Part shown: positions 619 through 27,661 of the stretch, piece by piece
Numbering within the stretch: position 1 is the first letter of the stretch
How the letters are laid out: each line of letters opens with the position of its first letter
Origin: Thermoplasmata archaeon
Lineage (GTDB): Archaea; Thermoplasmatota; Thermoplasmata; Lutacidiplasmatales; UBA184
NCBI GenBank assembly: GCA_021827405.1
Contig: JAKAVY010000002.1
Location: forward strand, 12,464-76,463
Length of the DNA: 64,000 nucleotides
Reading direction: 5' to 3'
Program-made: the position numbers and the translations under genes
The notes under the pieces: generated by a model
What the model was told of the DNA's origin: nothing
The model's database searches: none
The model's input: only the letters and a program-made list of their open reading frames with translations

Positions 619-1158
619 TCAGGCGGCCGGGTAGACGAGCTCTCCGCCCGGCTTCTGGTGGGACGGGAGCTTCTTGGTCGCCACGTTCTTGGTCTTCCAG
701 AAGATCTCGGCGAACTCCTGGACGCTCGCGACCAGTTCCTGGGCAGCCAGGAGGTTGACCTCCTGCCGTGCCTTGGACGCTTGTTTGAGGATCTTGAAGA
801 CCAGTTCGTGGACCTGGGGGAAGGCCTTCACCATGTCCGGGGTGAAGTAGTCGCCCCAGATCACCCGGATCTCGTGCTTGACCTTCTCCGCATGCTGCTC
901 CTTGACCGCGGTGTAGCGGGCGGCCTTGGAAGCGAACGTGTGCCGCTCCTCCGGCTTGGCGTCCGGCCCCGGGGCCGGGAGCTCGTTCAGGAGTTGGACC
1001 ATTCGGACCACGGTCAACGCCCCGATCTGGGCCTCGTGGGGGTCGTAGATGCCACAGGGGATGTCGCAGTGGGCGTAGGCCGTTTCCGGAGGGGCGAGGG
1101 CGTCCAGGAGCCGGTAGGACCGGTCCTTCAGGGTCTGCCAGGGCTTCATATCGACCAC
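619..1158 (-). CDS. sodN: Nickel-containing superoxide dismutase (Ni-SOD) precursor
   Basis: Ni-hook motif HCDIPCGIYDP after a 29-aa propeptide. Downstream VIWGDYFTP and EIFWKTK match Streptomyces SodN signatures (HCDLPCGVYDP, VLWSDYFKP, IFWETK). Confidence 0.9.
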   Translation of the reverse strand: MVDMKPWQTLKDRSYRLLDALAPPETAYAHCDIPCGIYDPHEAQIGALTVVRMVQLLNELPAPGPDAKPEERHTFASKAARYTAVKEQHAEKVKHEIRVIWGDYFTPDMVKAFPQVHELVFKILKQASKARQEVNLLAAQELVASVQEFAEIFWKTKNVATKKLPSHQKPGGELVYPAA

Positions 1159-1202: not shown

Positions 1203-1634
1203 ATGGCGCTGGACCCGGAAGGAGGTTCCTGGCACAGCCGGCTTCGTCGTCGGCTCCGCGCCCGGCGCTTCATGGTAGCGGACGAGAGCCTCGTCCCCCT
1301 GCTGCACCCCGGGGACAAGGTCCTCATGGACCCGGGGGCTTACCGCCGACGTGCGCCGCGCCCCGGCGAGTTCGTGGTCCTGGTGGACCCTCAGGGGCGG
1401 GTGCCGTGGCTCATCAAGCAGGTGGTGGCAGTCCGCGGGTCTTCCAAGGAGGGGAGGGGGGACGGGCCGCAGGTGGAGGTCCAGGGCACGGACCCCAGCC
1501 GGAGCCGGGACAGCCGCACGTTCGGGCCCGTGCCCCTCTCCAGCGTTCTGGGGGAGGCCTACTTCCGTTACTTCCCCCCGGCCCGCCGGGGGCCACTCGG
1601 ACCGGGGTCGGGGGCACCGGACCGGGACCCGTAG
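1203..1634 (+). CDS. sodX: S26 signal-peptidase-like Ni-SOD maturation protease (SodX-like); start uncertain (possibly the internal Met near 1272)
   Basis: Divergently adjacent to sodN. ADESLVPLL...GDKVL resembles the S26 GDSM...GD catalytic region. Confidence 0.55.
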   Translation: MALDPEGGSWHSRLRRRLRARRFMVADESLVPLLHPGDKVLMDPGAYRRRAPRPGEFVVLVDPQGRVPWLIKQVVAVRGSSKEGRGDGPQVEVQGTDPSRSRDSRTFGPVPLSSVLGEAYFRYFPPARRGPLGPGSGAPDRDP

Positions 1635-1768: not shown

Positions 1769-2908
1769 CTAGCTCCTCTCCCGGCCCTCTGAGGGGGCAG
1801 ACCGCACGGACCCGGTCGACCGGATGGACTGGTTCAGCGCGACCTCTGCGATGGTCCCGCAGAGGTGTCGCGCCGTCCCCATCCCCCAGGCGAACATGGC
1901 GAGGGAGGCGGTCTGGCGACGGGGAAGTCGGGCCCTGGCGAGGGCCAACTCCGTCTGCCGGAGGGAGCGCTGCGCCTCCTCTTGCGAACGGAGGACCCGA
2001 TGGGCGAGAGCGCTGTCTTCCCGCAGCAGGGAGCGGGAGGCATCCGTCACCATGGCTCGCAACGCCTCCAGATGTGAGCAGAGGTCCCTACGGAGACGCG
2101 GCGGTATCTCCCGGCCCTCGAGCCCGTCCCCGAGCGCGGACCCGGCTCTGAAGAGCAGGTCCGCGATCTCCTCCAGGACCTTGCCGACGACCCGGCTACC
2201 GAGGAGGTCCGGGGGCTCGGAGACGTCGAGCAGGCCGGCAAGACCACTGTCCTGGTGGGCCAGCATCAACTGGCGAAGGGTAAGGGCGTAGAGCCGGTCT
2301 GCCTCCGACTCCATCTCCCTTAGTTCCTCCAGGGGGATCCGACCTTGGGTCTCCATGGCCCTGGACAGCAGTTGGGTCATCTCCGTCACCACCAGACCGG
2401 CCCGGGCAAGGATCTGGGGGATCGTGTGTCGCCGCGGGTCCACGAAGCTCTGGAGGGCGATGAGGTGCCGGTCCAGGTACACCACTTGGAGCCCAACGAG
2501 GGAGCGAGCCACCCGGGCCACCTCCTTCTGCCGGTCCCGGTCGAACCCCTTCCCGTCGGCCAGTTCGATCCGGTCGTATCCCACCACGTAGGCCCCGAAG
2601 ACGGTCCGGGCCAGGACCTCCGGCTCGGAGAAGTGGGCCTCCTCCACCCGCAATACGCGTTCCCGAAAACGAGGGGCCGGGCCGGAGCCGAACGGATCCA
2701 CCGCGAGGCGACCATCCTCCTGGCCGCAGAGCCAGACCACCGACCCCCGGGACAGGGCGTGGCGTTCCACCCAGTTCTTGGGCAAACTGACCGCGAGGGT
2801 GTGTGGCCCGGATCGGTGGAGGTGCCGGGGCGAAGGAGGGAGACCCGTCCAGGCGCGGGGGCCGGTGCGGGGGAAGGCCTTGCCCGAGGGTCTCTCCTCG
2901 ACCGGCAT
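1769..2908 (-). CDS. PhoU-domain regulator with N-terminal AbrB/SpoVT-like DNA-binding domain (archaeal phosphate-uptake-regulator-like)
   Basis: N-terminus SLPKNWVERHALSRGSVVWLCGQEDGRLAV (looped-hinge helix), followed by helical PhoU-like repeats. Start placed at the ATG near 2908; the 551-aa track ORF has an upstream low-complexity extension that was rejected. Confidence 0.55.
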   Translation of the reverse strand: MPVEERPSGKAFPRTGPRAWTGLPPSPRHLHRSGPHTLAVSLPKNWVERHALSRGSVVWLCGQEDGRLAVDPFGSGPAPRFRERVLRVEEAHFSEPEVLARTVFGAYVVGYDRIELADGKGFDRDRQKEVARVARSLVGLQVVYLDRHLIALQSFVDPRRHTIPQILARAGLVVTEMTQLLSRAMETQGRIPLEELREMESEADRLYALTLRQLMLAHQDSGLAGLLDVSEPPDLLGSRVVGKVLEEIADLLFRAGSALGDGLEGREIPPRLRRDLCSHLEALRAMVTDASRSLLREDSALAHRVLRSQEEAQRSLRQTELALARARLPRRQTASLAMFAWGMGTARHLCGTIAEVALNQSIRSTGSVRSAPSEGRERS

Positions 2909-3125
2909 GGGGGAGGAGGCTCCTTCGGCAGGCACGGTGGCCGGGGTTCCCCCGGGAGACCTTAACCCTAGCCCACGGAGGTCCTGACGGTCTTGGACCG
3001 TCTGGACCGCACGGGGAAGACCCCTCCCCCCCCTCGTCCCGGACGACCATGACGCCAGCGCGGGGATCCCCGCCCGGGACTTCCCCGGTCCCGGTGGGCG
3101 GAGGGACCTCCCTGCGGGGTCCCCC

Positions 3126-5192
3126 ATGATCCTGGCCGAGGCCCTTCTCCTGGGAGGGATGGTCCTCTTCGTAGGGGGCATGGTTGTCGCCTGGACCCGC
3201 CCGACCGCCGGTGGGGTACGCGGGTCGTTCCTCCTGGGCTCCCTTGGTTGTGCGGTCGCCGCCATCCAGGCCGTGGAGCTGCTCGTCACCGGGACGGCCC
3301 CCTCCCTGGCCATCGGGTTCCCGGGCACCACCACGGGCGTTCCCCTCCTGGCCCTCTCCATCCAGGAGGATCCCCTGTCCGCGTTCTTCCTGCTGGTGGT
3401 AGCGGTCAGCGGCGGCGCGGTCATGCTGGCCTCGGTGGGCTACGTCGACCGCTACGTCCACGAACGCCGGGGGAGGCTCGCCGGCTTGTGCAACCTGTTC
3501 CTCCTGAGCCTGGTGCTGGTCTGTACCGCCGGGACCGTCTTCCTCTTCCTGGTCGCCTGGGAGGGGATGACCCTGGTCTCCTTCCTCCTCGTGGTCCACG
3601 AGCACCACGAACCGGAGAACCGGCAGGCGGGTCTCCGGTACGTGATCATGAGCCACGCGGCCGCGACCGGTGTCATCGCCTCCCTCCTTCTCCTGGCCGT
3701 CGGGACCGGACAGGCCGGTTGGGGCGGCATCGCCCAGGGGACCGCCCGTCTGTCCCCCTGGGTACGGGACGGGGCCTTCCTCGCCGCCCTGGGAGGGTTC
3801 GGGACCAAGGCGGGGATGGTGCCGCTCCACGTCTGGCTGCCCGGCGCCCATCCGGCCGCTCCGAGCAACGTCTCGGCCCTCATGTCCGGCGTCATGGTCA
3901 AGATGGGGATCTTCGGCCTTCTCCGGGTGGTCCTGGACCTCCTGGGGGGTGGCCCCTCGTGGTGGGCCTATGCCCTCCTTGCCTTGGGGGCCCTTTCTGC
4001 CCTGGTGGGGGTCCTCTACGCCATCGTTCAGCACGACCTCAAACGCCTGCTGGCCTTCCATTCCATCGAGAACATCGGGATCATCCTGATGGGGATCGGA
4101 GCGGGGCTGCTCTTCCTGAACCTCGGGTATCCCGCCCTCGCTGCCTTGGCCTTGGCGGCCGCCCTGCTTCACACCTGGAACCACGCGTTGTTCAAGTCCC
4201 TCCTCTTCCTCGGGGCCGGGGCCGCCGTCGGCAGCACCGGGACGCGGGACCTGGAGCGGATGGGGGGGCTCATACGCCGGATGCCGGGGGTCGCCCTGGG
4301 TTTCTTGGTAGGCTCCCTGGCCATCTCGGCCCTCCCCCCGTTCAATGGCTTCGTGAGCGAATGGCTCCTCTTCCAGAGCTTCTTCGCGGCCTTCACCACA
4401 GGGTCCGCGGGGACCGAGATGACGTTCTCAGCCCTCGCCGCGGTGCTGGCCCTGACGAGTGGGCTCGCGGCCTACTGCTTCGTGAAGGCCTTCGGGATCA
4501 CCTTCCTGGCCCGTCCCCGCACTCCCGAGGCGGCGAAGGCGGCCCCCGCGCCCCGGACGCTCGTGGCCGGGATGGGGATCCTCGCGCTATTCTGCCTGGT
4601 GCTGGGAGTGGCGCCCATCCTCGCGTTGGACCTGGCGGGGGGCCCCCTCCGGGAGCTCACCGGGACCACGCTGGGTACGGGAGTCCCCTTTTCCGTGTTC
4701 TCGAGTCTGCCCGGCCCCGGTTCCGTATCCCTCCCCTTCGCCCCGGGCCTCCTCGCGCTCCTCTTGGCCGGTGTCCTCGTCGTGGCCTGGGCCTTCTGGC
4801 GTCTCCGGGGAGCACCGCAGGTCGCCCCGGGACCCACCTGGGATTGCGGGATGGATCGGCCGACCCCGCGCATGGAGTATACCGCGACCGGCTACGCCCA
4901 ACCGCTGACCAGGATCTTCCGGGATTTCTACCGTCCCCGTGACCATGAGGAACGGCGCCCGGCCCTCCAGCCGGGCTGGGGAGATCTCTCCCGGATCAAG
5001 CGCTGGGCCCGGGAGATCGAGGACCCGGTCTGGAGATGGTTCTACCTTCCCCTCTCGCAGGGGACCCTCCATCTGGCCCGAAGGACCAGCCGGCTCCAGT
5101 CGGGCCGGATCCACGCGTACCTGGCCTACATGTTCACCACTCTCGTCCTCTTGCTCCTGCTCGTCCGGGTCGTCTGGGGGGGTACCCCGTGA
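3126..5192 (+). CDS. Hydrogenase-4/complex-I antiporter-like membrane subunit (HyfB/NuoL/MrpA family)
   Basis: 688 aa, polytopic. Motifs WLPGAHPAAPSNVSALMSGVMVKMGIFGLLR and HDLKRLLAFHSIENIG are typical of NuoL/HyfB. Confidence 0.85.
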   Translation: MILAEALLLGGMVLFVGGMVVAWTRPTAGGVRGSFLLGSLGCAVAAIQAVELLVTGTAPSLAIGFPGTTTGVPLLALSIQEDPLSAFFLLVVAVSGGAVMLASVGYVDRYVHERRGRLAGLCNLFLLSLVLVCTAGTVFLFLVAWEGMTLVSFLLVVHEHHEPENRQAGLRYVIMSHAAATGVIASLLLLAVGTGQAGWGGIAQGTARLSPWVRDGAFLAALGGFGTKAGMVPLHVWLPGAHPAAPSNVSALMSGVMVKMGIFGLLRVVLDLLGGGPSWWAYALLALGALSALVGVLYAIVQHDLKRLLAFHSIENIGIILMGIGAGLLFLNLGYPALAALALAAALLHTWNHALFKSLLFLGAGAAVGSTGTRDLERMGGLIRRMPGVALGFLVGSLAISALPPFNGFVSEWLLFQSFFAAFTTGSAGTEMTFSALAAVLALTSGLAAYCFVKAFGITFLARPRTPEAAKAAPAPRTLVAGMGILALFCLVLGVAPILALDLAGGPLRELTGTTLGTGVPFSVFSSLPGPGSVSLPFAPGLLALLLAGVLVVAWAFWRLRGAPQVAPGPTWDCGMDRPTPRMEYTATGYAQPLTRIFRDFYRPRDHEERRPALQPGWGDLSRIKRWAREIEDPVWRWFYLPLSQGTLHLARRTSRLQSGRIHAYLAYMFTTLVLLLLLVRVVWGGTP

Positions 5193-6154
5193 GCCTGCGC
5201 GTGGTGGGGCCGATGGTCCTCCTCCTGCTGGAGTATGCGTTCGTTCTCGCCGTCGGCCCGCTGCTCCTTTCCCTCGGCCGCCGGGTGAAGGCCCGGAGCC
5301 AAGGCCGGACCGGCAGCCCCCTGCTTCAACCGTACCGGGACCTCTGGAAGCTCCTGGGAAAGGGCGCGATCTACTCTGACACCTCGTCCTGGTTGACGCG
5401 CTGGGCCCCCGCGGTCTCCTTCGCGGCCCTGCTGGCCGCGGTCCCGCTCATCCCCTGGCTCGTGCTTCCCGCCCCGTTGGGATACGTGGGGGACCTCATC
5501 GTCCTGGTCGGCCTCCTGGCCCTCTCCCGGTTCATCGTCGCCCTGGCCGCCTTGGATGCGGGGAGCACCTTCGGTGGAATGGGCTCGAGCCGGGACATGT
5601 GGATGGGGGCGCTGGCCGAGCCGGTCTTCCTCCTCGTGATCTTCGCTTTCGGGGGGCCCGCGGGATCCACCCAGGCTGACGTGATCGCCGCGCGCGGCGT
5701 GGCGCTCGGTCTCGGGTACCTGAGCCCTCCGCTCCTGCTCGCCGTGGTGGCCTACGTGCTCCTGCTGCTCGTGGAGACGGGTCGGCTGCCCGTGGACAAC
5801 CCTGCGACCCACTTGGAGCTCACCATGGTCCATGAGGCCCAGACCCTGGAATACACTGGGCGGGACCTCGCGTTGCTGGAGTGGGGTCAGGGCCTCAAGC
5901 TCGCCCTCATGCTCGGGTTGCTCGCCGCCCTGGCCGTTCCCTGGGGGCTCGCGACCACCTGGGGCCTCCTCTTCCTCCTGGCCGCGCTGGCCGTGACCAG
6001 TCTCAAGCTGCTCGGGGGTCATCTCTTCGTGAGCGGCCTGGAGACCCGACTGGCCAAGTGGCGGCTCTTTCGGGTCCCGGATCTCACGACCCTCGCCGTG
6101 GTCCTGGCCTTCGGGTCCCTGGCGCTGACCTACGTCGTGGGGGGGGGCGCGTGA
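5189..6154 (+). CDS. NuoH/HycD/HyfC-like membrane subunit
   Basis: PLLQPYRDLWKLLGK motif (NuoH/HycD signature). GTG start overlaps the upstream stop (GTGA at 5189-5192). Confidence 0.8.
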   Translation: MSLRVVGPMVLLLLEYAFVLAVGPLLLSLGRRVKARSQGRTGSPLLQPYRDLWKLLGKGAIYSDTSSWLTRWAPAVSFAALLAAVPLIPWLVLPAPLGYVGDLIVLVGLLALSRFIVALAALDAGSTFGGMGSSRDMWMGALAEPVFLLVIFAFGGPAGSTQADVIAARGVALGLGYLSPPLLLAVVAYVLLLLVETGRLPVDNPATHLELTMVHEAQTLEYTGRDLALLEWGQGLKLALMLGLLAALAVPWGLATTWGLLFLLAALAVTSLKLLGGHLFVSGLETRLAKWRLFRVPDLTTLAVVLAFGSLALTYVVGGGA

Positions 6155-6807
6155 CGTCGTTCGCGACCCTGGCGTTGGACCTCGCGGCGGCTTCCGCGCT
6201 GGTCACGGCCTGGATCTGCCTGGTCCACCGGAGGATCACGGCGCTCGTGGACACCTACGCCGTCCAGTCCGCCTCGCTGGCGGTCACCGAAGGCCTCATT
6301 GCCTACCTCTACTCCGCTCCGGACCTGTACCTCCTGGCGCTCCTTACCTTCGTCGTGAACGCCCTGGTCCTCCCCGGGGTCCTGCGCCGGGTGGTCCGGG
6401 CCCTGCGGGTGAACCGCATGGTGAACACCTATGCCTCCGTGCGCGTGAGCGCCCTCGCTGGCCTGGGCCTGCTTCTCTTGGCCATCCTGGTGGTCGGACC
6501 CGTCGTCCCGTATGCGGAGGTCTCCTCCGCCGGTCTCCTGCCCATCGCCACGGCCATCCTGCTCATCGGCTTCTTCCTGCTCATCAGCCGGGAGAAGGCG
6601 GTCACCCAGGTAGTGGGCCTCCTGGTGATGAACAACGGCATCCTCCTCGCCGGGATCGCGCTTACCTACGGACTCGGCCTCTTCGTGGAACTGGCCCTGG
6701 CGGCGAACCTCCTGGTGCTGGCCATCGTGGCGCGGATCTTCCTCGCACGCATGAAGGAGTCCTTCGACCACGTAGACGTCGACGCGCTGCGCTCGCTCGA
6801 GGGATGA
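6151..6807 (+). CDS. HyfE-like small membrane subunit (NuoK-related)
   Basis: 218 aa with about 6-7 TM helices, in the position and size of HyfE. GTGA overlap at 6151-6154. Confidence 0.65.
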   Translation: MTSFATLALDLAAASALVTAWICLVHRRITALVDTYAVQSASLAVTEGLIAYLYSAPDLYLLALLTFVVNALVLPGVLRRVVRALRVNRMVNTYASVRVSALAGLGLLLLAILVVGPVVPYAEVSSAGLLPIATAILLIGFFLLISREKAVTQVVGLLVMNNGILLAGIALTYGLGLFVELALAANLLVLAIVARIFLARMKESFDHVDVDALRSLEG

Positions 6808-8297
6808 TCCGGATGATCGAAGGCCCCTTCTGGATGCTGGCCCTGCTTCTGACCCCGCTGGTGGGAGGGGGACTGGTCTGGGTCTCCCGGACCCGGGCCC
6901 AGCTCAATGCCTCGGCGGCGGCCACGGGGGCGGCCTCCTTCGGGTTCCTGCTCTTTGTTTTGGACCAGGTCCTTGCCACTGGACCCACTTTCGCGGTCGG
7001 GGGTCTCCTTTACGTCGACGCCCTCTCGGGGCTGCTCCTGCTCGTCATCACGCTCGTGGGATTGGCGAGCCTGCTCTATTCCATCGACTACCTGGGCCGC
7101 AGCGGAAGCCCGCACGAGGCCTCCGTTCCTCGCCTTCGCCGATACTACGGACTGGTTCTTCTCTTCCTCTTCACCATGTACCTCGTTTCAGAGGCCAACA
7201 ACCTGGGGCTGCTGTGGACCGCCCTGGAGGGGACCACCCTTGTCTCCGCGCTCATGGTCGGCTATTACCAGACCCGCCGGGCCCTGGAGGCATCGTGGAA
7301 GTACCTCATCCTCTGCAGCGCCGGACTCGCCTTCGCCCTGTTCGGGACTCTCCTGCTCTACCTGGCGTCGATCCGGGCCCTGGGATCCGGGGCCTCCGGG
7401 CTCGATTGGACCACCCTCGTCCAGGCCGGCGGACATCTGGACCCGGGGCTGGTCCAACTGGCCTTGGTCTTCCTTTTCGTGGGCTACGGGACCAAGGCGG
7501 GGCTGGCCCCGCTCCACAACTGGCTCCCGGACGCCCACTCGGAGGCCCCCACCCCGGTCTCGGCCCTGCTCTCAGGCGCGCTCTTGAACTGCGCCATGTA
7601 CGCGTTGATCCGGGTAGACGCCATCACGTTAAGGATCCCGGGATTCACGTTGACCCATTGGCTCCTGCTGATCTTCGGTTTGAGCTCGGTCTTCGTCGCC
7701 GCCTTGTTCATCCTCGTCCAGCACGACCTCAAGCGTCTGCTCGCCTACCACTCCGTGGAGCACATGGGGATCATCACCCTAGGGCTCGCCTTTGGTGGGT
7801 TCCTGGGCGTCTTCGGCGCCCTGTATCACCTGCTCAACCATGCGGTCACCAAGGCCGCGCTCTTCCTCATTGGCGGAAACCTCGCCCTCCAGGCCCAGAC
7901 GAAGGACCTCGAACAGATCCAGGGTGCGCTCGCCGCCGTGCCCGCCACCGCGATCGCGCTCCTGCTCGGAGGCCTCGCCCTGGGGGGGGTCCCACCCTTC
8001 TCCGTCTTTGCCAGCGAGTTCGTCATCCTCACCGCGGGGTTCACCGATGGGAATGCCTGGGGGGCGATCCTCCTTCTCGTGGCCCTGGCCATCGTTTTCG
8101 CCGGGCTCATTGGCCATTTGGTCCACATGCTGTTCGGGGGGAACCCCTCCCGGCACTATCTCCCCGGACTGCGCCGTGCGGTGGGGGCTTCGATCGGCGT
8201 AGGGCTCCTTATGGCCCTGGCGCTTGGGCTGGGACTGTTCCTGCCCAACCCGCTCTCCCAGCTCTTGCACGGGGCCGTCCAGGCGGTGAACGGATGA
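6804..8297 (+). CDS. Antiporter-like membrane subunit (HyfF/NuoM/NuoN family)
   Basis: WLPDAHSEAPTPVSALLSGALLNCAMYALIR and HDLKRLLAYHSVEHMG motifs. ATGA overlap at 6804-6807. Confidence 0.85.
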   Translation: MIRMIEGPFWMLALLLTPLVGGGLVWVSRTRAQLNASAAATGAASFGFLLFVLDQVLATGPTFAVGGLLYVDALSGLLLLVITLVGLASLLYSIDYLGRSGSPHEASVPRLRRYYGLVLLFLFTMYLVSEANNLGLLWTALEGTTLVSALMVGYYQTRRALEASWKYLILCSAGLAFALFGTLLLYLASIRALGSGASGLDWTTLVQAGGHLDPGLVQLALVFLFVGYGTKAGLAPLHNWLPDAHSEAPTPVSALLSGALLNCAMYALIRVDAITLRIPGFTLTHWLLLIFGLSSVFVAALFILVQHDLKRLLAYHSVEHMGIITLGLAFGGFLGVFGALYHLLNHAVTKAALFLIGGNLALQAQTKDLEQIQGALAAVPATAIALLLGGLALGGVPPFSVFASEFVILTAGFTDGNAWGAILLLVALAIVFAGLIGHLVHMLFGGNPSRHYLPGLRRAVGASIGVGLLMALALGLGLFLPNPLSQLLHGAVQAVNG

Positions 8298-9940
8298 GCC
8301 CGCCTGCCCAGGAAGGAGAGGAGACCCCCCTTCCCCCTGTGGGGACCCGCCCCCCGCTCCCGGTGGACCGGAACCGTCCGGACCGGGTCGAGGAAGAGAG
8401 GACCCTGGGCGCGTTAGGAGCCGGCCCGGTGACCTGGTTGGAGGGCGAAGGCCTGTGGGCCCTGTCCGTAGACCCCGAGCGATGGCCGGCCATCTGCCGT
8501 TGCATATCCGAGGTGATGCACCACCCGCTCTCCACCCTCTTCGGCGAGGAGGCCCACGGGGGGATCCGGCTGCACGCGCTGTTCCTCGGCCACGACCCCA
8601 CTCCCGGGGTCCATGTCCGCTGTCCGCTGCACCCCGGCGTACTCTCAGCTCCTTCCCTCGCAGCCACCATCCCCTTCGTGGCCCCCTTCGAACGGGAGGT
8701 GGCGGAGATGTTCGGTGTCACCTTCCTAGGGGCCATGGACCGTCGACCGCTTCTCCTGCACGAGAGACACTCGGCCCCACCCCTGCGAAAAGGCCCTCCG
8801 GCCACCCCCACGGGTGAGCTGGAACCCTACGTCTTCCCGCCGGTGGAAGGGGAAGGGGTCTACGAGATCCCCGTGGGTCCGGTACATGCCGGCGTCATCG
8901 AGCCCGGCCACTTCCGTTTCCAGGCCGTGGGGGAGGAGATCCTCGATCTCGAGGTCCGCCTCGGGTACACCCACAAGGGCACGGAGCGCCTCTTCGAGGG
9001 GCAGCCGGTGGCCCGGGGCACCCTCTGGGCGGAGTCCATCTCCGGGGACATGTCCGTTGCGGGGGGAGTCGCCTACGCGCACGCGGCCGAACGGGCCCTG
9101 GACTCCCGGGTTCCGGCGGTCACGGAGGCCGCGCGCGGGCTCCTGCTGGAGCTGGAACGCATCGCGTTCCTCTGCGGAGACGTTGCGGGGATCTCCCTGG
9201 ATGTGGGCTACGCGGTGGGGGCGGCACGGGCCAACCGCCTCCGGGAACGGACCTACGCCGGGCTCCGGTCCCTCACCGGCTCCCGCCTGGGGCGCGCCAT
9301 CGTGGGAGTGGGCGGATTCCGCCGGCCACTCGTGCTGGGCGACCCGGCCGAACTGATCCTGACCCTTCGGGAGACCTCGGCCCGTATCCAGGCCCTCCGG
9401 GACCATCTTCTGGACAAGTCTTCGGTGGTGGACCGGCTCCAGGGAACCGGGATCATTCACCGGTGGACCGCCGAGCTGCTGCATTTCCTCGGACCTACCG
9501 CCCGGGCCTCCGGGCTCAGGATCGACCTCAGGGTGGACCGTCCGTACGGGCCGTACCGAGACGTGGAGGTCCATGTCCCGCGCGGTCTCCAGGGGGATGT
9601 GCAGGATCGCCTCACCGTCAAGGTCGACGAGGTGGTGGAGGCTTGCCGCCTTTCCGAGACCTTCCTAGGCCGCCTCGGGCAAGGGATCCCCCCGGCGCCT
9701 GCCACGCCTCCGCCCCCCGGGGAACCGCGCGAGGGACTCGGCTGGGTGGAATCCCCGCGCGGCGAGTTCCTCGTCTACCTCGCGCTCGCTCCTGACGGTA
9801 CCTTGGGACGGGTCCATGTCCGGGACCCCTCGTTCCTCACGTGGCCCGCCATCGAACAGGCCGTCCGAGGGAACATCGTCCCGGACTTTCCCCTGTGCAA
9901 CAAGAGCCTGAACCTCTCGTATTCGGGGTACGACCGATGA
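8294..9940 (+). CDS. NuoC-NuoD fusion / [NiFe]-hydrogenase large-subunit homolog (HycE/HyfG-like) lacking the NiFe-binding cysteines (Ehr-type)
   Basis: N-terminal NuoC-like domain (EREVAEMFGVTFLGAMDRRPLLL). NuoD/HycE-like core (PVGPVHAGVIEPGHFRF). The L1 motif RxCGxCxxxH is replaced by SISGDMSVAGG. The C-terminal DPCxxCxxR is replaced by DFPLCNKSLNLSYSGYDR. ATGA overlap at 8294-8297. The 908-aa track ORF is an upstream read-through. Confidence 0.85.
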   Translation: MSPPAQEGEETPLPPVGTRPPLPVDRNRPDRVEEERTLGALGAGPVTWLEGEGLWALSVDPERWPAICRCISEVMHHPLSTLFGEEAHGGIRLHALFLGHDPTPGVHVRCPLHPGVLSAPSLAATIPFVAPFEREVAEMFGVTFLGAMDRRPLLLHERHSAPPLRKGPPATPTGELEPYVFPPVEGEGVYEIPVGPVHAGVIEPGHFRFQAVGEEILDLEVRLGYTHKGTERLFEGQPVARGTLWAESISGDMSVAGGVAYAHAAERALDSRVPAVTEAARGLLLELERIAFLCGDVAGISLDVGYAVGAARANRLRERTYAGLRSLTGSRLGRAIVGVGGFRRPLVLGDPAELILTLRETSARIQALRDHLLDKSSVVDRLQGTGIIHRWTAELLHFLGPTARASGLRIDLRVDRPYGPYRDVEVHVPRGLQGDVQDRLTVKVDEVVEACRLSETFLGRLGQGIPPAPATPPPPGEPREGLGWVESPRGEFLVYLALAPDGTLGRVHVRDPSFLTWPAIEQAVRGNIVPDFPLCNKSLNLSYSGYDR

Positions 9941-10803
9941 CGTCCCGCCCGGACCTGCGTACGGTTGTCTCTGCGGCGGCTCCCGCCGGCCGTTCGGCAC
10001 GGGATGAGAGCCAGACCCTCCGCTACCCCCTCGGACCCCTACCGGTCCTGCCACGTCCTTGGCGGACCCCCCGACACGATGCGGGGCGCTGTGACGGCAC
10101 CGGGGCCTGCGCGACGGCATGCCCCACCGGGGCTCTCGAGGTCACCAGCACCGGTGGCCAGGACCGGGTGACGCTGGACTACGGGAAGTGCCTCTTCTGC
10201 TCACTCTGCGTGGATGCGTGTCCCTCCGGGGCCATGACCTCCACCCCGTTCGAGGAGCTCTCCGTCCGCCGACGGGGGGACCTGATCGCTGTCCACCCGT
10301 CCGTTGCGTCGCTCAACCCCTCCGACGAGCTCAGGCGCGAGGTGGCCACAAGTGTGGGCCGCCTCTTCGCGGGGTCCCTATCGATCCGGGCGGTGGACGC
10401 GGGCAGTTGCAATGGCTGTGAGGTCGAGGTGGGAGCGCTCCTTTGGCCCCGGTACGACCTGGAACGGCTGGGGATCCACCTGGTGGCTTCGCCGCGACAC
10501 GCGGATGCCCTCTTGGTCACGGGCCCGGTCACGCGCAACATGCGCCAGGCACTGGAGAAGACCTATCGTGCCGTCCCTCCTCCTCGATTTGTGCTGGCCG
10601 TCGGAGCGTGCGGGATCTCCGGCGGGCCCTTCGCCGGTTCGGCCGAGGTAGAGGGGGGGGTGGACCGGGTACTTCCCGTCGAGGTCTACATCCCGGGGTG
10701 CCCTCCCTCGCCGGTGGCTCTGCTCCACGGGTTGTGGCTCGCCCTCGGCAAGGTCGAACAACGGATGGTCCGGGGGGAGTTCTCCTCAGGGATCCCACCG
10801 TAA
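9937..10803 (+). CDS. Fusion of 2x[4Fe-4S] ferredoxin (NuoI/HycF-like) and NuoB/HycG-like small subunit
   Basis: KCLFCSLCVDACP (canonical) plus an atypical RCDGTGACATACP. Then the NuoB signatures SCNGCE, GACGISGGPF and YIPGCPP. ATGA overlap at 9937-9940. Confidence 0.85.
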   Translation: MTSRPDLRTVVSAAAPAGRSARDESQTLRYPLGPLPVLPRPWRTPRHDAGRCDGTGACATACPTGALEVTSTGGQDRVTLDYGKCLFCSLCVDACPSGAMTSTPFEELSVRRRGDLIAVHPSVASLNPSDELRREVATSVGRLFAGSLSIRAVDAGSCNGCEVEVGALLWPRYDLERLGIHLVASPRHADALLVTGPVTRNMRQALEKTYRAVPPPRFVLAVGACGISGGPFAGSAEVEGGVDRVLPVEVYIPGCPPSPVALLHGLWLALGKVEQRMVRGEFSSGIPP

Positions 10804-15143: not shown

Positions 15144-17969
15144 ATGGGAGGGAGCCGGCGGGCATCCACGTCGAGACCCGGGGGTCCGCTTTGGAGGAGA
15201 GGGTTGTCGCCCCCACGTCGAGGCAAGCCCGCATTCGGCCGCGGATGCGGTGAGCCGGCCCCGGGCCCGAAACATGCGGTCGCCCTGCTCGGACTGATCG
15301 GCCTCCTCCTGGTTTCGGGATCGGCCCAGGGTCTGTTCGCGCCGGCGGAGCCCCTCTCGCGGGAGGCGGGGTCCGGTGCCCCCGGACATTCGGTCCTCCC
15401 TTCCCTGAGCGGCCGTCCCGCGCCCTCACGGCCGTCCGTCCCCGGGAAGGAGGCCACGACCAGACCCTTCGTCACCCCACCGACACCGATGTTCCGGGCC
15501 GGCCCTGAACCTCCCGTCTCCCCTCGGACGGGCATCGCGCATGCGAGCGGCACCGTCCTCTACGTGTCCCCCTCCGGCTCCAACGGGAACCCGTGTACCG
15601 CGACCGAGCCGTGCCGGCAGATCAACACCGCCGTAGACCGGGCCGCCCCGGGAGACACCGTGCTCGTGGCTAACGGGACGTACCTGGGCTTCGAACTGGA
15701 CGGGACTCACGGTGAGCCGGGCGCCCCGATCATCATCACCGACCCCGGCCACGACGCCGTGATCGAGACCAACGGGTCCTGCTGTAACTGGACCAGCCAG
15801 GGAGAGCAGGACCAGATGTACTTCAACCAGGTCTCCTGGGTGGTGGTCAACGGGCTCCGCAGCTACCAGATCCAATCCACCGTCCCTACCGCGAACCTCT
15901 GGGTGAGTCAGAGCAACAATCTCACGCTGAGCAATCTGACCTTCGAGAACGGCACCTACGTGAATGCCTCCACCGGGTGGCCGAGCAAGGCCAGCCTTTT
16001 CCTGGACCTCTCCACGAACATCACCATCGAGTATGACAACATCTCGGGGGCCAAGGGGTCCCATGGGATCTACTTCAACAACGACGGCCTGCCGTTGACC
16101 TACGGCGATGTGATCCGGAACAACATCCTCGACGATAACAATTGGACGGGGGTCCAACTGGTCTACGCCAGCCACTGCCAGGTGGAGGACAACGTGCTCG
16201 CCGGTAACGGGGCGGGGGGGGCCGCAGGGATCAGCCTTCGCGAAGTGGTGGACTCGGAGGTCCTGAACAATTTGGTCTATGACGAACTGGGGGCGGGCCT
16301 CAGCATCGTGGAGGATGCCTCCCCGGCGGGGGGAACGCAAACCTCGGGGAATCTCATCGCCTACAACACGGTGGTGGTGGGGGCAGCCGGGCGGGCCGCT
16401 CTCATTGTGGGGGCCGGATCCACGGGACCCGGGAATGTCCTGAGGGACAACATTCTCTACACGGAGGACAACGCCGTCTGGCCCTCTCTTGACTTCCAGG
16501 GCTCCAGCGGGACCGCAGACCTGGTGGGGGACCACAACGTGCTTCAATCTGTGGAAGACCCCAACGGAAGCTACTCCCTGGCCCAGTGGCAGTCCCTGGG
16601 CTACGAGAACGGTTCCCTCTCCGCCACCCCGTCGGAGCTCTTCGTCAACGCCACCCAGGGGGACTACCAGCTCGCTCCTCTATCCCCTGCGACGAACGCC
16701 GGCATCGCGATTCCCTCCGTGACCAGCGATATCCAGGGTGACCCACGTCCCGTCTCCGGGTCTTCGGACATCGGTTGCTATGAGAGCGCGAGTCCCTCGC
16801 TCCGGGCCGTGGCCTCGGCCTACCCGGGGAACGGGACCGCCCCTTTGACCGTGACCTTCACGGGCACCGGCTCCGGTGGGAGCGCTCCCTACCGCTACGA
16901 ATGGACCTACGGGGATGGGACCGCCCCCTCTCAGGCTGCCGACCCGCAGCACACGTACAACACCAGCGGCTCCTTTCCCGTGGAACTGACCATCGAGGAC
17001 GCCCGGGGGGGACTGGCCCACGCCTTCCTGAACGTCAGCGTGACGGCCCCCATCCCCTTCTCGGTCCAAATTCAAGCCAACCTCTCCGGTCCCACCGCGG
17101 GCGAGCCCGTGTTCTTCACCGGAGGGGCCTCGGGAGGGACTCCACCGTACTCCGGTTGGGATTGGACCTTTGGCGACGGCTCGACGGCCACGGGTCAGAA
17201 TGTCTCCCACGCGTTCACGAACCCCGGGAACTATAGCGTGGCTCTGAAGGCCACGGACTCACGGGATCGCACGGCCAACGCGTCCTTCCACCTCCAGGTT
17301 TGGGCTCAGCCAACCCTCGCCGTCTCCCTCCAGACCAATGTCACGAGCCTTCCGCTGGGGAGGGCGGTGGCGGTCTCGACCACGGTCAGCGGGGGGACCG
17401 GGCCGTACACGGTCCAGTACGCCGGCCTCCCCCCCGGTTGTGGCGGGGAGAGCGCCTTGGCCTTCTCCTGCGAGCCCGCACAGGCTGGCCATTACAACAT
17501 CACCGCGAAGGTGACGGACACGGTCGGCCGCGCTGGCCAGAGCCCTCCGGCCCCGCTATACGTCCAGGTTCCGTTGTTCCCCCTCTCCGTTCACCTGGAG
17601 ATCTCCTCCCCTTCGGTCCCGGCCGGCACCCTCGTGACGCTGACCTCGATCTCGTCGGGTGGGAGCGGGGGGCCCTTCTCTTACTCCTGGTCCGGACTCC
17701 CGGCGGGGTGCACGAACCTCGACGAGCCATCCCTGGACTGCGTTGTGTCGACCCCAGGGTCCTACCACATTTCCGTCCGGGTCACGGATGCCCAGGGGCA
17801 ATCCAACGCCAGCCAGCCGGTAGGTCTGGTGGTGGCGCCGTCCAAGGCACCTTCCCCGGGTGAGCCCTTCGGTCCCGAAGTGGTCTTCTCCATCACGGCC
17901 CTGATCGCAGGTGCGGTCGTGGTCGCCGGCGTGTATGTTCTACGCCGACGTGCGAGAGGGGCCCACTGA
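15144..17969 (+). CDS. Large secreted surface (S-layer-like) glycoprotein: parallel beta-helix (pectin-lyase fold) + PKD/Ig-like domains + C-terminal TM anchor
   Basis: Signal-peptide-like HAVALLGLIGLLLVSGSAQG. NGTY/NNLTLSNLTFENGTYVNAS beta-helix repeats. PKD motif (TAPLTVTFTGTGSGGSAPYRYEWTYGDGT). C-terminal VVFSITALIAGAVVVAGVYVLRRRAR. Very many N-x-S/T sequons. Start codon uncertain. Confidence 0.75.
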   Translation: MGGSRRASTSRPGGPLWRRGLSPPRRGKPAFGRGCGEPAPGPKHAVALLGLIGLLLVSGSAQGLFAPAEPLSREAGSGAPGHSVLPSLSGRPAPSRPSVPGKEATTRPFVTPPTPMFRAGPEPPVSPRTGIAHASGTVLYVSPSGSNGNPCTATEPCRQINTAVDRAAPGDTVLVANGTYLGFELDGTHGEPGAPIIITDPGHDAVIETNGSCCNWTSQGEQDQMYFNQVSWVVVNGLRSYQIQSTVPTANLWVSQSNNLTLSNLTFENGTYVNASTGWPSKASLFLDLSTNITIEYDNISGAKGSHGIYFNNDGLPLTYGDVIRNNILDDNNWTGVQLVYASHCQVEDNVLAGNGAGGAAGISLREVVDSEVLNNLVYDELGAGLSIVEDASPAGGTQTSGNLIAYNTVVVGAAGRAALIVGAGSTGPGNVLRDNILYTEDNAVWPSLDFQGSSGTADLVGDHNVLQSVEDPNGSYSLAQWQSLGYENGSLSATPSELFVNATQGDYQLAPLSPATNAGIAIPSVTSDIQGDPRPVSGSSDIGCYESASPSLRAVASAYPGNGTAPLTVTFTGTGSGGSAPYRYEWTYGDGTAPSQAADPQHTYNTSGSFPVELTIEDARGGLAHAFLNVSVTAPIPFSVQIQANLSGPTAGEPVFFTGGASGGTPPYSGWDWTFGDGSTATGQNVSHAFTNPGNYSVALKATDSRDRTANASFHLQVWAQPTLAVSLQTNVTSLPLGRAVAVSTTVSGGTGPYTVQYAGLPPGCGGESALAFSCEPAQAGHYNITAKVTDTVGRAGQSPPAPLYVQVPLFPLSVHLEISSPSVPAGTLVTLTSISSGGSGGPFSYSWSGLPAGCTNLDEPSLDCVVSTPGSYHISVRVTDAQGQSNASQPVGLVVAPSKAPSPGEPFGPEVVFSITALIAGAVVVAGVYVLRRRARGAH

Positions 17970-18701: not shown

Positions 18702-19099
18702 GCCCGGTTTGGGGGCTCTTGACCAAGGAGTCAGCCCCTCCGTTCTTCGGTCGGAAGCGCAACGACACGACCCGGTGGAAGTCCCGGAGGAGGAGGGTGA
18801 GGCACGCGAAGCGATGGGCCCGATGGGTGCCCCGCTCCTCCTTCGTCTTGACCGGCTGATTCCGCCTGGCGTCCGGGGTCTGACCATGGTAAGGCAGGTC
18901 GGGGTCGTCGATGGCGAAGTCGACCGGCTCGCCAGGAAGGATGGGTCAGACATGGCGGGGAAGGGCCAGGGTGATGGCGCGCTGGATCTTCCCGAGTGGA
19001 GGTGGCCGAGGACGTACGGGCGGTCCTGTCGGACCGACCACTCCGATACTGGGAGCGCGGGGCAAGGCCGGGGGAGCGCGTGGCGGACGCCCGGAGGAG

Positions 19100-19640
19100 A
19101 AGGTCCGCGTTGGCCACGCCTCCAAAGGAACTCGGAGGCGACGGGCGTTAGTCGTCTTCGTGGACGAGAGCGGTCTCTCGCCATCCCCTACCGTGCGAAG
19201 ACCTGGGTAACGGTGGGGAAGACCCCGGTGTTGGTGCATCAGGGGCGATGGCCGAAGGTCTCCGCGATCGGAGGGGGCACGTGTTCGCCTCCACCTGAAG
19301 GTGCGGAAGGGGTCCGTCCGCGGGTCTCAGGTGATCGCGTTCCTGAAGCGCCCCCTCCTGCACATCCGGAGGAAGCCGGTCATACTCCTCTGGGACAAGG
19401 GGCCGCACCCCGGTCCAAACTGGTGCGTGCCTTCCCGCGCCAGCCGCGTCCACTGGAGGTGCACCGACATCCCGGGCACAGCCCCGAACTGAACCCAGAG
19501 GAGTGGTTCTGGCCTCATCTCCAGACGCATGAACTGGCCAGCTACGTCCCCCATGCCCTGACAGAGTCGATGAAAGGGGTCTGGCTGGCGGTGATGAGAG
19601 CGCGGGACCACCCGCGTCTCTTGCGACCGTTCGCCCACGT
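19100..19640 (+). mobile_element. IS630/Tc1-mariner-family transposase gene remnant (pseudogene, at least 3 frameshifts, N-terminus missing)
   Basis: DDE motifs split over frames: ALVVFVDESGLSPSPTVRR, then (frame shift) VTVGKTPVLV, then KPVILLWDKGPHP (second D), then (frame shift) HSPELNPEEWFWPHLQ. No intact ORF. Confidence 0.7.
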
Positions 19641-19860
19641 CGGAGTCAGGGATCGCCGATGCGGATCGTCAAGGGACCTCATGTGAAGCCACAGCGGTGG
19701 GGTTCAAGGAAATTACTTGACGGTCAAGAATACCACTGTGCTTGCCTTACAAGCTTAACCCCACCCCTCGAGAGGTGCTTATCGCGGGGGAAGGACGGTT
19801 GGACGGACACGACCTGTGCCCAAAGACGGCTCCGGTGTCCAAACAGGGGGCAGACCTTCT

Positions 19861-27321: not shown

Positions 27322-27661
27322 ACCCGTCCGTTATTTGAGCCTCTGCTCGGAGACCCGGTCGCGTCGGGCCCCTCCCAGCCGCGTTCCCGGTGAGAGCCAG
27401 CAGGGCGGGCTCCGCCATATGGCGAGGCGCTACAGCCGCCCGGCGGTCTTGGGTCTTCGGATGGGGGCCAGGGACGGACTCCTCCAACACCCGCATCCTT
27501 GACGGACCCTACCCCCGGACCCAACTCCGATGGCCAATCCGGCCCCTTGGTCCCTTCGGCCTCACCGAGGGGACAACCCCCCACGGGTCGGACACGATCG
27601 GCACCGCCACGCCAGGGTGCCAACGCTTTACTGGTGCCGGGGCTCTCGGGACTTGGAGCCC

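Follow-up and report, generated by a model that had tools for sequence, protein, structure and literature searches.

The window analysed here, a stretch of 64,000 nucleotides from a Thermoplasmata archaeon, carries an operon of six genes at positions 3126 to 10803 that resemble hyfB, hyfC, hyfE, hyfF, hyfG and a fused hyfHI. The locus is a typical archaeal member of the known family of energy-converting hydrogenase-related (Ehr) or Hyq complexes and does not represent a new kind of system. As a member of this family, the encoded complex almost certainly operates without [NiFe] chemistry. With modest confidence, it was interpreted as a stand-alone assembly of six subunits related to group-4 membrane hydrogenases and to respiratory complex I, and a function as redox-coupled ion translocator appeared likely. 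Subunit identities were obtained from Pfam and NCBIfam profile searches and from PDB matches. Both the six subunit types and the Ehr-type classification had been proposed in a first-pass annotation of the window. The profile search of each subunit confirmed every assignment, and the classification is borne out by the family motifs, the retained N2-type iron-sulfur (Fe-S) cluster and the fused ferredoxin domain.

The absence of a [NiFe] site was evident from the large subunit, in which a NuoC-like domain (8465–8803) is fused to a NuoD/HycE-like domain (8861–9937). The protein matched Pfam Complex1_30kDa and Complex1_49kDa, and no match to PF00374 (NiFeSe_Hases) was found in the Pfam search. Its AlphaFold2 model (predicted local distance difference test, pLDDT, 84.3; predicted template-modelling score, pTM, 0.88) had Escherichia coli HycE as the top structural match (TM-scores 0.85/0.87, 28% identity), followed by E. 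coli NuoCD. In a residue-by-residue alignment, the four [NiFe] cysteines of E. coli HycE (7z0s_E) fell on S250, M253, S542 and G545. The loss of the NiFe ligands, already suspected in the first-pass annotation, was upheld by this realignment, which revealed no CxxC pairs. The replacements are characteristic of the relatives as well. In 120 of the 120 best database homologues, C-G-x-C was replaced by S-G-D and the D-P-C-x-x-C region by N-K-S-x-x-L-S-Y-S-G-x-D. Over a set of 85 loci, with overall identities of about 35–45% to the window large subunit, S250, G251, D252, N536, K537, S538, S542, Y543, G545 and D547 were at least 93% conserved. Because the motifs are so well kept at low overall identity, the former NiFe pocket is under selection and not decaying. 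Cysteine was less constant in this region: the position of C535 is a Cys in only 31 of the 85 loci, and A262 stands where 60 of the 85 family members have one.

The same findings dispose of an ordinary group-4 [NiFe] hydrogenase of the Hyf or formate hydrogenlyase-2 type with overlooked ligands, which the hyf-like gene order and the best NCBIfam matches, hydrogenase-4 subunits, might suggest. It was ruled out by the replacement of all four Cys relative to HycE, the unmatched PF00374 and the recurrence of the replacements in all of the best homologues. A decaying pseudo-operon was excluded by six intact open reading frames (ORFs) and by functional residues that are invariant across the family. 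The probability left to either explanation is negligible. Among the best 120 homologues, family members outside the Thermoplasmata subclade described below scored 338–377 bits against the large subunit, compared with 161 for HycE, 107 for MbhL and 101 for Nqo4. By this measure, true hydrogenases and NuoD are more distant from the large subunit than its Ehr counterparts are.

The small subunit consists of a NuoI/HycF-like ferredoxin domain (10000–10290) fused to a NuoB/HycG/MbhJ-like domain (10360–10782). It matched the Pfam Fer4 families and Oxidored_q6, the NCBIfam NuoB model (122.6 bits, above the cut-off) and the HycF/NuoI models. Top PDB matches of the NuoB-like domain were MbhJ (E=1e-41) and HycG (E=2e-40). 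All 11 Cys of the protein lie within Fe-S motifs, two of which belong to the ferredoxin domain and one to the N2-type proximal cluster. In 7Fe ferredoxins and in succinate dehydrogenase, a missing middle Cys classically marks a [3Fe-4S] site. Since ferredoxin motif 1 has T55 at this position and supplies three Cys ligands only, the distal cluster may be of the [3Fe-4S] type. Judged from these ligands, the peripheral arm probably carries one three-Cys cluster, one [4Fe-4S] cluster and one N2-type cluster.

The N2-type Cys were kept in nearly all fused small subunits of the family that were examined. The ferredoxin domain itself is not universal. It was fused to the small subunit in 37 family loci, 42 others had a NuoB-only small subunit, and a separate small ferredoxin gene was detected in only a few of these 42. 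Thus, with a NuoB-only small subunit, the N2-type cluster may be the sole Fe-S centre in many members. In the fused forms, the first three Cys of motif 2 and the CP of motif 1 were nearly always retained. These residues together ligate one cluster in 2x[4Fe-4S] ferredoxin folds, and the retained cluster would be the one adjoining N2. The other cluster of the domain was wholly lost in most Acidobacteriota-type and Verrucomicrobiota-type sequences and complete in some Bacillota and Acidobacteriota. As far as these alignments indicate, the electron-entry module is plastic, with zero, one or two extra clusters, and the membrane module and N2-type cluster are invariant.

The four membrane subunits were related to those of hydrogenase 4 and complex I. 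The HyfB-like subunit was of the HyfB/HycC/NuoL type (Pfam Proton_antipo_M, E=1.6e-50) with HycC as its top PDB match (7z0s_C, E=1e-73), and scored 662.9 bits against the NCBIfam model 'hydrogenase 4 subunit B', for which the cut-off is 667. Its residues E146, K228, H235, K259, H349, H353, K357 and E412 were kept in 64–66 of 66 family members. The HyfC-like subunit was of the HyfC/HycD/NuoH type (Pfam NADHdh, E=3.7e-31; top PDB match HycD, 7z0s_D, E=1e-40), and E144, E196, R199, D203, H208, E210, H215, E216, E221, K273 and E285 were invariant or nearly so across the family. The C-terminal half of the HyfE-like subunit was NuoK-like. This protein aligned over its full length with the NCBIfam 'hydrogenase 4 membrane subunit' (E=5.6e-17, below the cut-off), and its match to Pfam Oxidored_q2 was weak. 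P75, R147 and N162 were kept in 67–68 of 68 sequences, and the position of E180 held Glu in 60 and Asp in 6 of the 68. The HyfF-like subunit was an antiporter-like protein of the HyfF/NuoM-N type (Pfam Proton_antipo_M, E=9e-54; 461.7 bits against NCBIfam 'hydrogenase 4 subunit F') with invariant or nearly invariant E142, K231, H238, H346 and K350; E405 was found in 71 of 77 sequences. It is the invariance of these relay residues, together with that of the N2-type cluster ligands, that makes redox-coupled ion translocation the likely function.

The six ORFs are co-directional, and each is free of internal stops (Table 1). As described in the first-pass annotation, adjacent genes share 4-nucleotide overlaps, reading GTGA at 5189 and 6151 and ATGA at 6804, 8294 and 9937. 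All five are present in the sequence. The overlaps at 5189, 6151, 8294 and 9937 are secure, but that at 6804 is ambiguous. The window is identical to part of a contig of a metagenome-assembled genome (NCBI GCA_027321945.1, contig DAHVIL010000047.1; contig coordinate = window coordinate + 35147), and the public gene calls for this contig matched five of the ORFs, with the HyfF-like gene alone called from 6813 (494 residues). Two in-frame ATG codons, at 6804 and 6813, are available for its start, and only the first gives the 4-nucleotide overlap. In four relatives, the HyfF-like gene starts 3–30 nucleotides past the HyfE stop without overlap, and the N-termini align with the 6813 start. The overlap at 6804 is therefore possible but insecure, because the public call and the four relatives favour ATG 6813. 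The remaining four overlaps were kept in the gene calls of three of these four relatives (L086–L088); in L085, a gap was called at the HyfB–HyfC junction instead. G-rich or GGTGA-like stretches precede the internal genes and not the first gene, and were read as Shine-Dalgarno-like signals that would serve the internal genes only. The operon end at 10803 is followed by a 285-nucleotide spacer with a TATATA element and then by a chorismate mutase/prephenate dehydrogenase gene.

Table 1. Positions of the operon genes, sequence motifs and upstream control elements in the window
Feature	Position	Strand	Product or length	Basis
HyfB-like ORF	3126–5192	+	688 residues	
HyfC-like ORF	5189–6154	+	321 residues	
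HyfE-like ORF	6151–6807	+	218 residues	
HyfF-like ORF	6804–8297	+	497 residues from ATG 6804, or 494 residues from ATG 6813	
Large subunit ORF	8294–9940	+	NuoC-NuoD fusion, 548 residues	
S250-G251-D252-M253, in place of the N-terminal C-G-x-C [NiFe] motif	9041–9052	+		HycE alignment
C535-N-K-S-L-N-L-S542-Y-S-G545-Y-D547, in place of the C-terminal D-P-C-x-x-C [NiFe] motif	9896–9934	+		HycE alignment
Small subunit ORF	9937–10803	+	NuoI-NuoB fusion, 288 residues	
Ferredoxin motif 1, C52-x2-T55-x2-C58-x3-C62-P	10090–10122	+	Second Cys lost	Sequence
Ferredoxin motif 2, C85-x2-C88-x2-C91-x3-C95-P	10189–10221	+	Canonical [4Fe-4S]	Sequence
N2-type ligands C158, C161, C225, C255 (CNGC ... GAC ... GCPP)	10408–10701	+	Proximal [4Fe-4S]	Alignment with MbhJ, HycG and NDUFS7
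AbrB (SpoVT/MazE-fold)-PhoU protein gene, divergent upstream	1769–2908	-	379 residues	Pfam
Divergent intergenic (control) region	2909–3125			Sequence

The archaeal affiliation of the window, which has a G+C content of about 70%, was supported by encoded Nop56/58, diphthamide synthase, NAC and PAC2. The named closest homologues of the large and small subunits came from records labelled 'Thermoplasmata archaeon', 'Candidatus Thermoplasmatota archaeon' or 'Euryarchaeota archaeon'. The ORFs of the 64-kb window were scanned except for a few short ones. In agreement with the first-pass annotation, they contained no hyp, hyc, formate dehydrogenase or HycB gene; HycI and nickel transporter genes were likewise not found among them.

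The distribution of the family was assessed by scanning one genome per species with the peptide patterns GPVHAG[VI]IE and NKS[LF]NLSYS, which include part of the replacement motifs, and by confirming each match with tblastn. At least 598 loci were found in species-representative genomes, and all 598 confirmed matches listed encode relatives. These matches are distant relatives only (34–44% identity), and the close Thermoplasmata loci were obtained through exact-protein look-ups. Among the archaeal hosts were Methanosarcinales, Methanomassiliicoccales and Nitrososphaeria. Among the bacterial ones were Acidobacteriota, Verrucomicrobiota, Nitrospirota, Rokubacteria, Chloroflexota, Actinomycetota, Bacillota and Alpha-, Beta- and Gammaproteobacteria. 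The complete six-gene set was present in the same order in about 60 of 80 retrieved loci, and contig ends interrupted most of the others. The family gene order was B-C-E-F-G-(H)I, with one variant having the small subunit first. Several loci of Acidobacteriota and Verrucomicrobiota (L010, L015, L034, L073, L026 and L029) had an extra HyfB-like or HyfF-like gene, so that the number of antiporter-like subunits ranged from two to three. A Nitrospirota locus (L050, 4763–19829) contained two complete Ehr cassettes in tandem, and in a Methanomassiliicoccus locus (L005, 9140–13769) a second, more distant complex-I-like cluster lay directly downstream.

All ORFs within 5 kb of 80 related cassettes were clustered to compare the flanks. 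No recurrent formate dehydrogenase, NuoEF, HycB or hyp gene was found in these flanks. The recurring families were generic only, namely ATP-binding cassette (ABC) ATPases, sensor kinases and small helix-turn-helix regulators, with an ArsR type upstream in eight loci. Since no specific partner gene recurs, the cassette is self-sufficient.

The large subunits of the Thermoplasmata subclade (P0001–P0028) share at least 48% identity with the window protein, and with no other family member found does their identity exceed 46%; at the border of the subclade, the bit score falls from 456 to 377. Pocket variants of the subclade were S-G-D-M/H, Gly for His at position 257 and Ala for Cys at position 262. 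Among 37 small subunits of the subclade, motif 1 lacked the second Cys in 36 (Thr in 19, Ser in 6, Ala in 3, Gly in 3 and other residues in 5), and the four Cys of motif 2 were present in all 37. Two features of the subclade were found here, the three-Cys distal cluster and a linked gene for an AbrB-PhoU protein.

The divergent AbrB-PhoU gene upstream of the operon had been recognised in the first-pass annotation. The window protein matched PhoU with 28.2 bits, and its N-terminal MazE_antitoxin match was weak. The AbrB assignment was confirmed on orthologues, in which PhoU was found in five of five and MazE_antitoxin in four of five. These orthologues (31–63% identity) adjoin the cassette in all five subclade loci examined. 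They are placed divergently upstream in three loci and directly downstream on the same strand in two. Because the adjacency survives rearrangement, a functional link is indicated, most simply regulation, and the adjacent AbrB-PhoU protein probably controls expression of the cassette. The divergent intergenic region contains an inverted-repeat block, GGTCC-N10-GGACC-N4-GGACC, at 2980–3008, which is preceded by a TTAA element at about 2962–2965. The block is partly conserved (GGTCC-N10-GGACC) in L088 and L085, the two other loci with divergent layout, and could serve the AbrB-PhoU protein as an operator or promoter element.

Ehr complexes were reportedly first named in Geobacter sulfurreducens (GSU0739-45; Coppi 2005) and are said to have been defined by Marreiros et al. 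in 2013. They are described as widespread, devoid of NiFe ligands and of unknown function (PMC6349859, PMC10432482, PMC10284858, PMC12342949, PMC6147122, PMC6728331, PMC7894505), in accordance with the statement in the first-pass annotation that the family had been recognised and its function left unsettled. Members have been reported in Nitrospira, ammonia-oxidising archaea, Methanomassiliicoccales, Margulisbacteria and the Rv0082-Rv0087 cluster of Mycobacterium tuberculosis; Ehr was not treated in one Cupriavidus fitness study or in one Nitrospira transcription study. The window complex resembles them in having large and small subunits related to group-4 hydrogenases, a large subunit without CxxC NiFe motifs, a retained N2-type cluster, NuoL-like, NuoH-like and HyfE-like membrane subunits and, as far as the scanned window ORFs show, no dedicated maturation genes. 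It differs in its regulator, as the AbrB-PhoU gene is linked to the window subclade, whereas the ArsR-type regulator stands upstream in eight other loci.

The closest solved structures include that of the E. coli formate hydrogenlyase, a group 4a [NiFe] complex. The window operon shares the hyf-like order B-C-E-F-G-HI, as noted in the first-pass annotation, without hyfA, hyfD and hyfJ, and the best solved-structure matches of four subunits were HycE, HycC, HycD and HycG of the formate hydrogenlyase (FHL, 7Z0S). In contrast to Hyf and Hyc, the cassette lacks NiFe ligands, HyfA/HycB, HyfD, HyfJ, FdhF, HycI and the Hyp genes, and HyfH and HyfI are fused. The HyfB-like subunit has a Lys in transmembrane helix 7 (K228), where HycC has Leu. 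With complex I (Nuo/Nqo) and the ferredoxin-dependent NDH-1/Fpo-like complexes, the window complex has homologous counterparts of NuoB, C, D, H, I, K and L/M/N in common, as well as the relay residues of the antiporter-like subunits, the loop motif of NuoH and an N2-type cluster. However, NuoA, a separate NuoJ, NuoE, NuoF, NuoG and a third antiporter-like subunit are absent from the cassette, and with six genes it does not match the eleven core complex-I subunits (NuoA-D, NuoH-N).

A mechanism was proposed on this basis. A low-potential one-electron donor would dock on the fused NuoI-like domain. This donor would probably be ferredoxin, because no NuoEFG, formate dehydrogenase or HycB module is encoded or conserved nearby; judged from the gene content, the identification of ferredoxin has about as much for it as against it. 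Electrons would run via the three-Cys distal cluster, possibly [3Fe-4S], and the canonical [4Fe-4S] cluster to the N2-type cluster. Redox and protonation changes would then follow where the small, large and HyfC-like subunits meet and where the former NiFe pocket forms a strictly conserved polar site (S-G-D, N-K-S, S-Y-S-G-x-D). A loop of the HyfC-like subunit (E-T-G-R-x-P-x-D ... H-L-E-L ... H-E), together with the HyfE-like subunit, may relay these changes to both antiporter-like subunits, which have a complete Glu/Lys/His relay, with the outcome that H+ or Na+ would be moved across the membrane, or that the reverse reaction takes place. Donor, direction and acceptor are thus proposals, and the conservation of ligands and relay residues and the absence of NiFe ligands and partner modules were read from sequence. 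The acceptor is the weakest step. A membrane quinone, bound non-canonically, was the first guess and is doubtful.

Several observations weigh against this reading. The first concerns the acceptor. His38 and Tyr87 of Nqo4 (Thermus thermophilus numbering) are the quinone head-group ligands of complex I. In the window protein, His38 corresponds to I202 and Tyr87 to G251, so the canonical quinone ligands are gone. The suggestion of the first-pass annotation that a quinone-like substrate occupies the NuoD-like pocket did not find support in these residues. The same pocket motifs also occurred in records labelled Acetobacterium and Methanomassiliicoccales, lineages that are not known to have respiratory quinones. 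A quinone acceptor is therefore weakened twice, by the absence of the canonical complex-I ligands and, for the family as a whole, by members in lineages thought to be quinone-free. One further candidate for a quinone-free host, L068 with the label Candidatus Daviesbacteria, was rejected, since the size of the contig and its resemblance to a Thermoleophilia locus cast doubt on the label. A second point is the ferredoxin domain, which is missing from the small subunit in about half of the family loci, so docking of ferredoxin on this domain cannot be universal. Moreover, the PDB copy searched contained no solved structure of a closer relative, the best identity being 28%, and no Ehr/Hyq family member with a demonstrated substrate pair was found. 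Finally, genetic work on the Hyq complex of Azorhizobium caulinodans ties a homologue to H2 recycling and H2 evolution (PMC2650096, PMC3357923).

The Hyq complex, encoded by hyqRBCEFGI and termed 'endo-hydrogenase', has a HyqG without both CxxC motifs (PMC2650096, PMC3357923). Its six structural genes correspond to those of the window operon and follow one another in identical order (B, C, E, F, G, I); like the large subunit described here, HyqG is a NuoC-NuoD fusion, HyqI keeps the four N2-type Cys, and alphaproteobacterial Hyq-type loci fall within the same family alignment. The window operon differs in that HyqI has no fused ferredoxin domain, alphaproteobacterial small subunits being about 175 residues long, and in that hyq belongs to the nif regulon with its own hyqR, while the window yielded neither nif nor hyqR-like genes. 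The relationship raises the question of whether the complex converts H2 in a non-canonical way, as an H2:quinone oxidoreductase of the kind proposed for Hyq, at a site independent of the four NiFe Cys. The shared make-up and order of the six subunits (PMC2650096) would fit, as would the finding that a hyq deletion altered diazotrophic growth and in vivo H2 output although HyqG has no CxxC either (PMC3357923). Conservation of the pocket across the family, including hosts thought to be quinone-free, would also suit a universal substrate such as H+/H2. On the other hand, the protein has none of the metal ligands of any known hydrogenase type. Alphaproteobacterial HyqG reads F-P-L-C-N-K-S-F-N-C with two conserved Cys, of which the window protein has the first alone (C535, but L541), and a position equivalent to Hyq Cys-258 was not assignable with certainty in it. 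A262 replaces the Cys of most family members, and hyp genes were neither among the scanned window ORFs nor recurrent beside related cassettes. The Hyq authors themselves regard the catalytic site as speculative (PMC2650096, PMC3357923), the Hyq evidence is from in vivo work only, and in Nitrospira moscoviensis H2 had no effect on the expression of Ehr (PMC12342949). A H2-converting enzyme of this kind was considered very improbable here. The first-pass description of the complex as 'not a hydrogenase' accordingly stands for [NiFe] chemistry, but for the family it is not experimentally settled, given the Hyq genetics.

Another alternative is a ferredoxin-dependent, ion-pumping reductase of a soluble, non-quinone acceptor such as sulfane sulfur or a disulfide, reduced at or near the proximal cluster as proposed for Pyrococcus MBS. 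The P. furiosus complexes MBH and MBS/Mbx are ferredoxin-driven, ion-translocating relatives of complex I. MBS also lacks a NiFe site, and its subunits 6u8y_L, J, M, H and X were detectable homologues. Mbx has been cited as a related hydrogenase-like complex (PMC6349859). However, similarity to the MBS chains (6U8Y) was far below that to the FHL chains, with 74 bits for the large subunit (6u8y_L) against 161 for HycE. The membrane module of the window complex is also much smaller than those of MBH and MBS and has no MrpE/F/G-type subunits, MBS having a 13-subunit architecture with an Mrp-type module compared with six genes here. No sulfur-metabolism genes were found in the window. The probability of such a reductase was rated as low.

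The plasticity of electron entry allows a further interpretation, in which the complex is a redox-gated cation/proton antiporter. Its Fe-S chain would act only as a sensor for the redox state of cytoplasmic ferredoxin and would control an Mrp-like transporter, with no net substrate reduction. An invariant membrane module and N2-type cluster next to a very plastic entry module are consistent with this, and so are the absence of canonical acceptor ligands, the lack of a partner oxidoreductase conserved nearby and a polar pocket that is conserved over hosts with very different electron carriers. No precedent was found, however, since the characterised relatives (complex I, MBH, MBS and FHL) all turn over a substrate, and the strictly conserved pocket resembles a site of reaction or proton delivery more than a structural leftover. 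Gating without turnover is therefore unlikely.

It is also conceivable that the same machine operates mainly in reverse, with the ion gradient lifting electrons from quinol to ferredoxin and so providing an aerobic cell with low-potential reductant. The family occurs frequently in aerobes with a demand for reduced ferredoxin (such as Nitrospira, ammonia-oxidising archaea and rhizobia), the nickel superoxide dismutase genes beside the operon suggest an oxygen-exposed lifestyle, and a distal cluster with three Cys ligands would be more oxygen-tolerant. The missing canonical quinone ligands count against a quinol reaction here too, and predominantly reverse operation was given little weight. Rather unlikely as well is the view that the polar pocket replacing the NiFe site is a new catalytic or coupling site that acts on a universal substrate, for either Cys-independent H+/H2 chemistry, at which the Azorhizobium Hyq genetics hint, or redox-gated transport without a substrate. 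If true, the Thermoplasmata version with its [3Fe-4S] entry cluster and AbrB-PhoU protein would be an oxygen-tolerant, ferredoxin-linked form.

The nickel superoxide dismutase gene (Pfam Sod_Ni, 619–1149, minus strand) and a small Peptidase_S26-like gene (about 1272–1634, plus strand) lie about 1.5 kb upstream of the operon; the latter presumably encodes a SodX-type maturation protease. The presence of the dismutase gene indicates that the archaeon uses nickel and meets oxygen, although the complex has no nickel site. Downstream of the operon, a large predicted surface protein with a NosD/beta-helix and repeated PKD domains is encoded at 15144–17969 (plus strand). PKD-repeat proteins were also encoded near the cassette in three relatives (L085, L086 and L087), at varying positions. 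Between 18000 and 22000, the G+C content is 0.61–0.64 compared with about 0.70 elsewhere, and the stretch, which contains a DDE_3 transposase-like gene (about 18814–19686) and genes of the glyoxalase family, is possibly mobile or inserted. An ORF of 504 residues at 27530–29044 (plus strand) had only a short match to the DNA methylase family N6_N4_Mtase. Its true start probably differs, because the exact product was not in the public protein index. Another ORF, of 850 residues at 60372–62924 (plus strand) and with a strong coding signal (third-position G+C content of 0.89), had no Pfam match at E<=0.001.

Few complex-I relatives without an assigned function are as widespread as the Ehr/Hyq complexes, which occur in M. 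tuberculosis, Nitrospira, ammonia-oxidising archaea, rhizobia, Geobacter and methanogens and have been discussed as intermediates between membrane hydrogenases and complex I. The locus described here adds an archaeal subclade, within the Thermoplasmata, that has a three-Cys distal cluster and a dedicated AbrB-PhoU neighbour. As the organism is uncultured, the locus itself does not make the question of function more testable. The comparison across the family adds that no partner enzyme is conserved, that the pocket and the ion-relay residues are under strong selection and that the entry module is plastic. This family-wide pattern of conservation narrows the hypotheses worth testing in cultured hosts.

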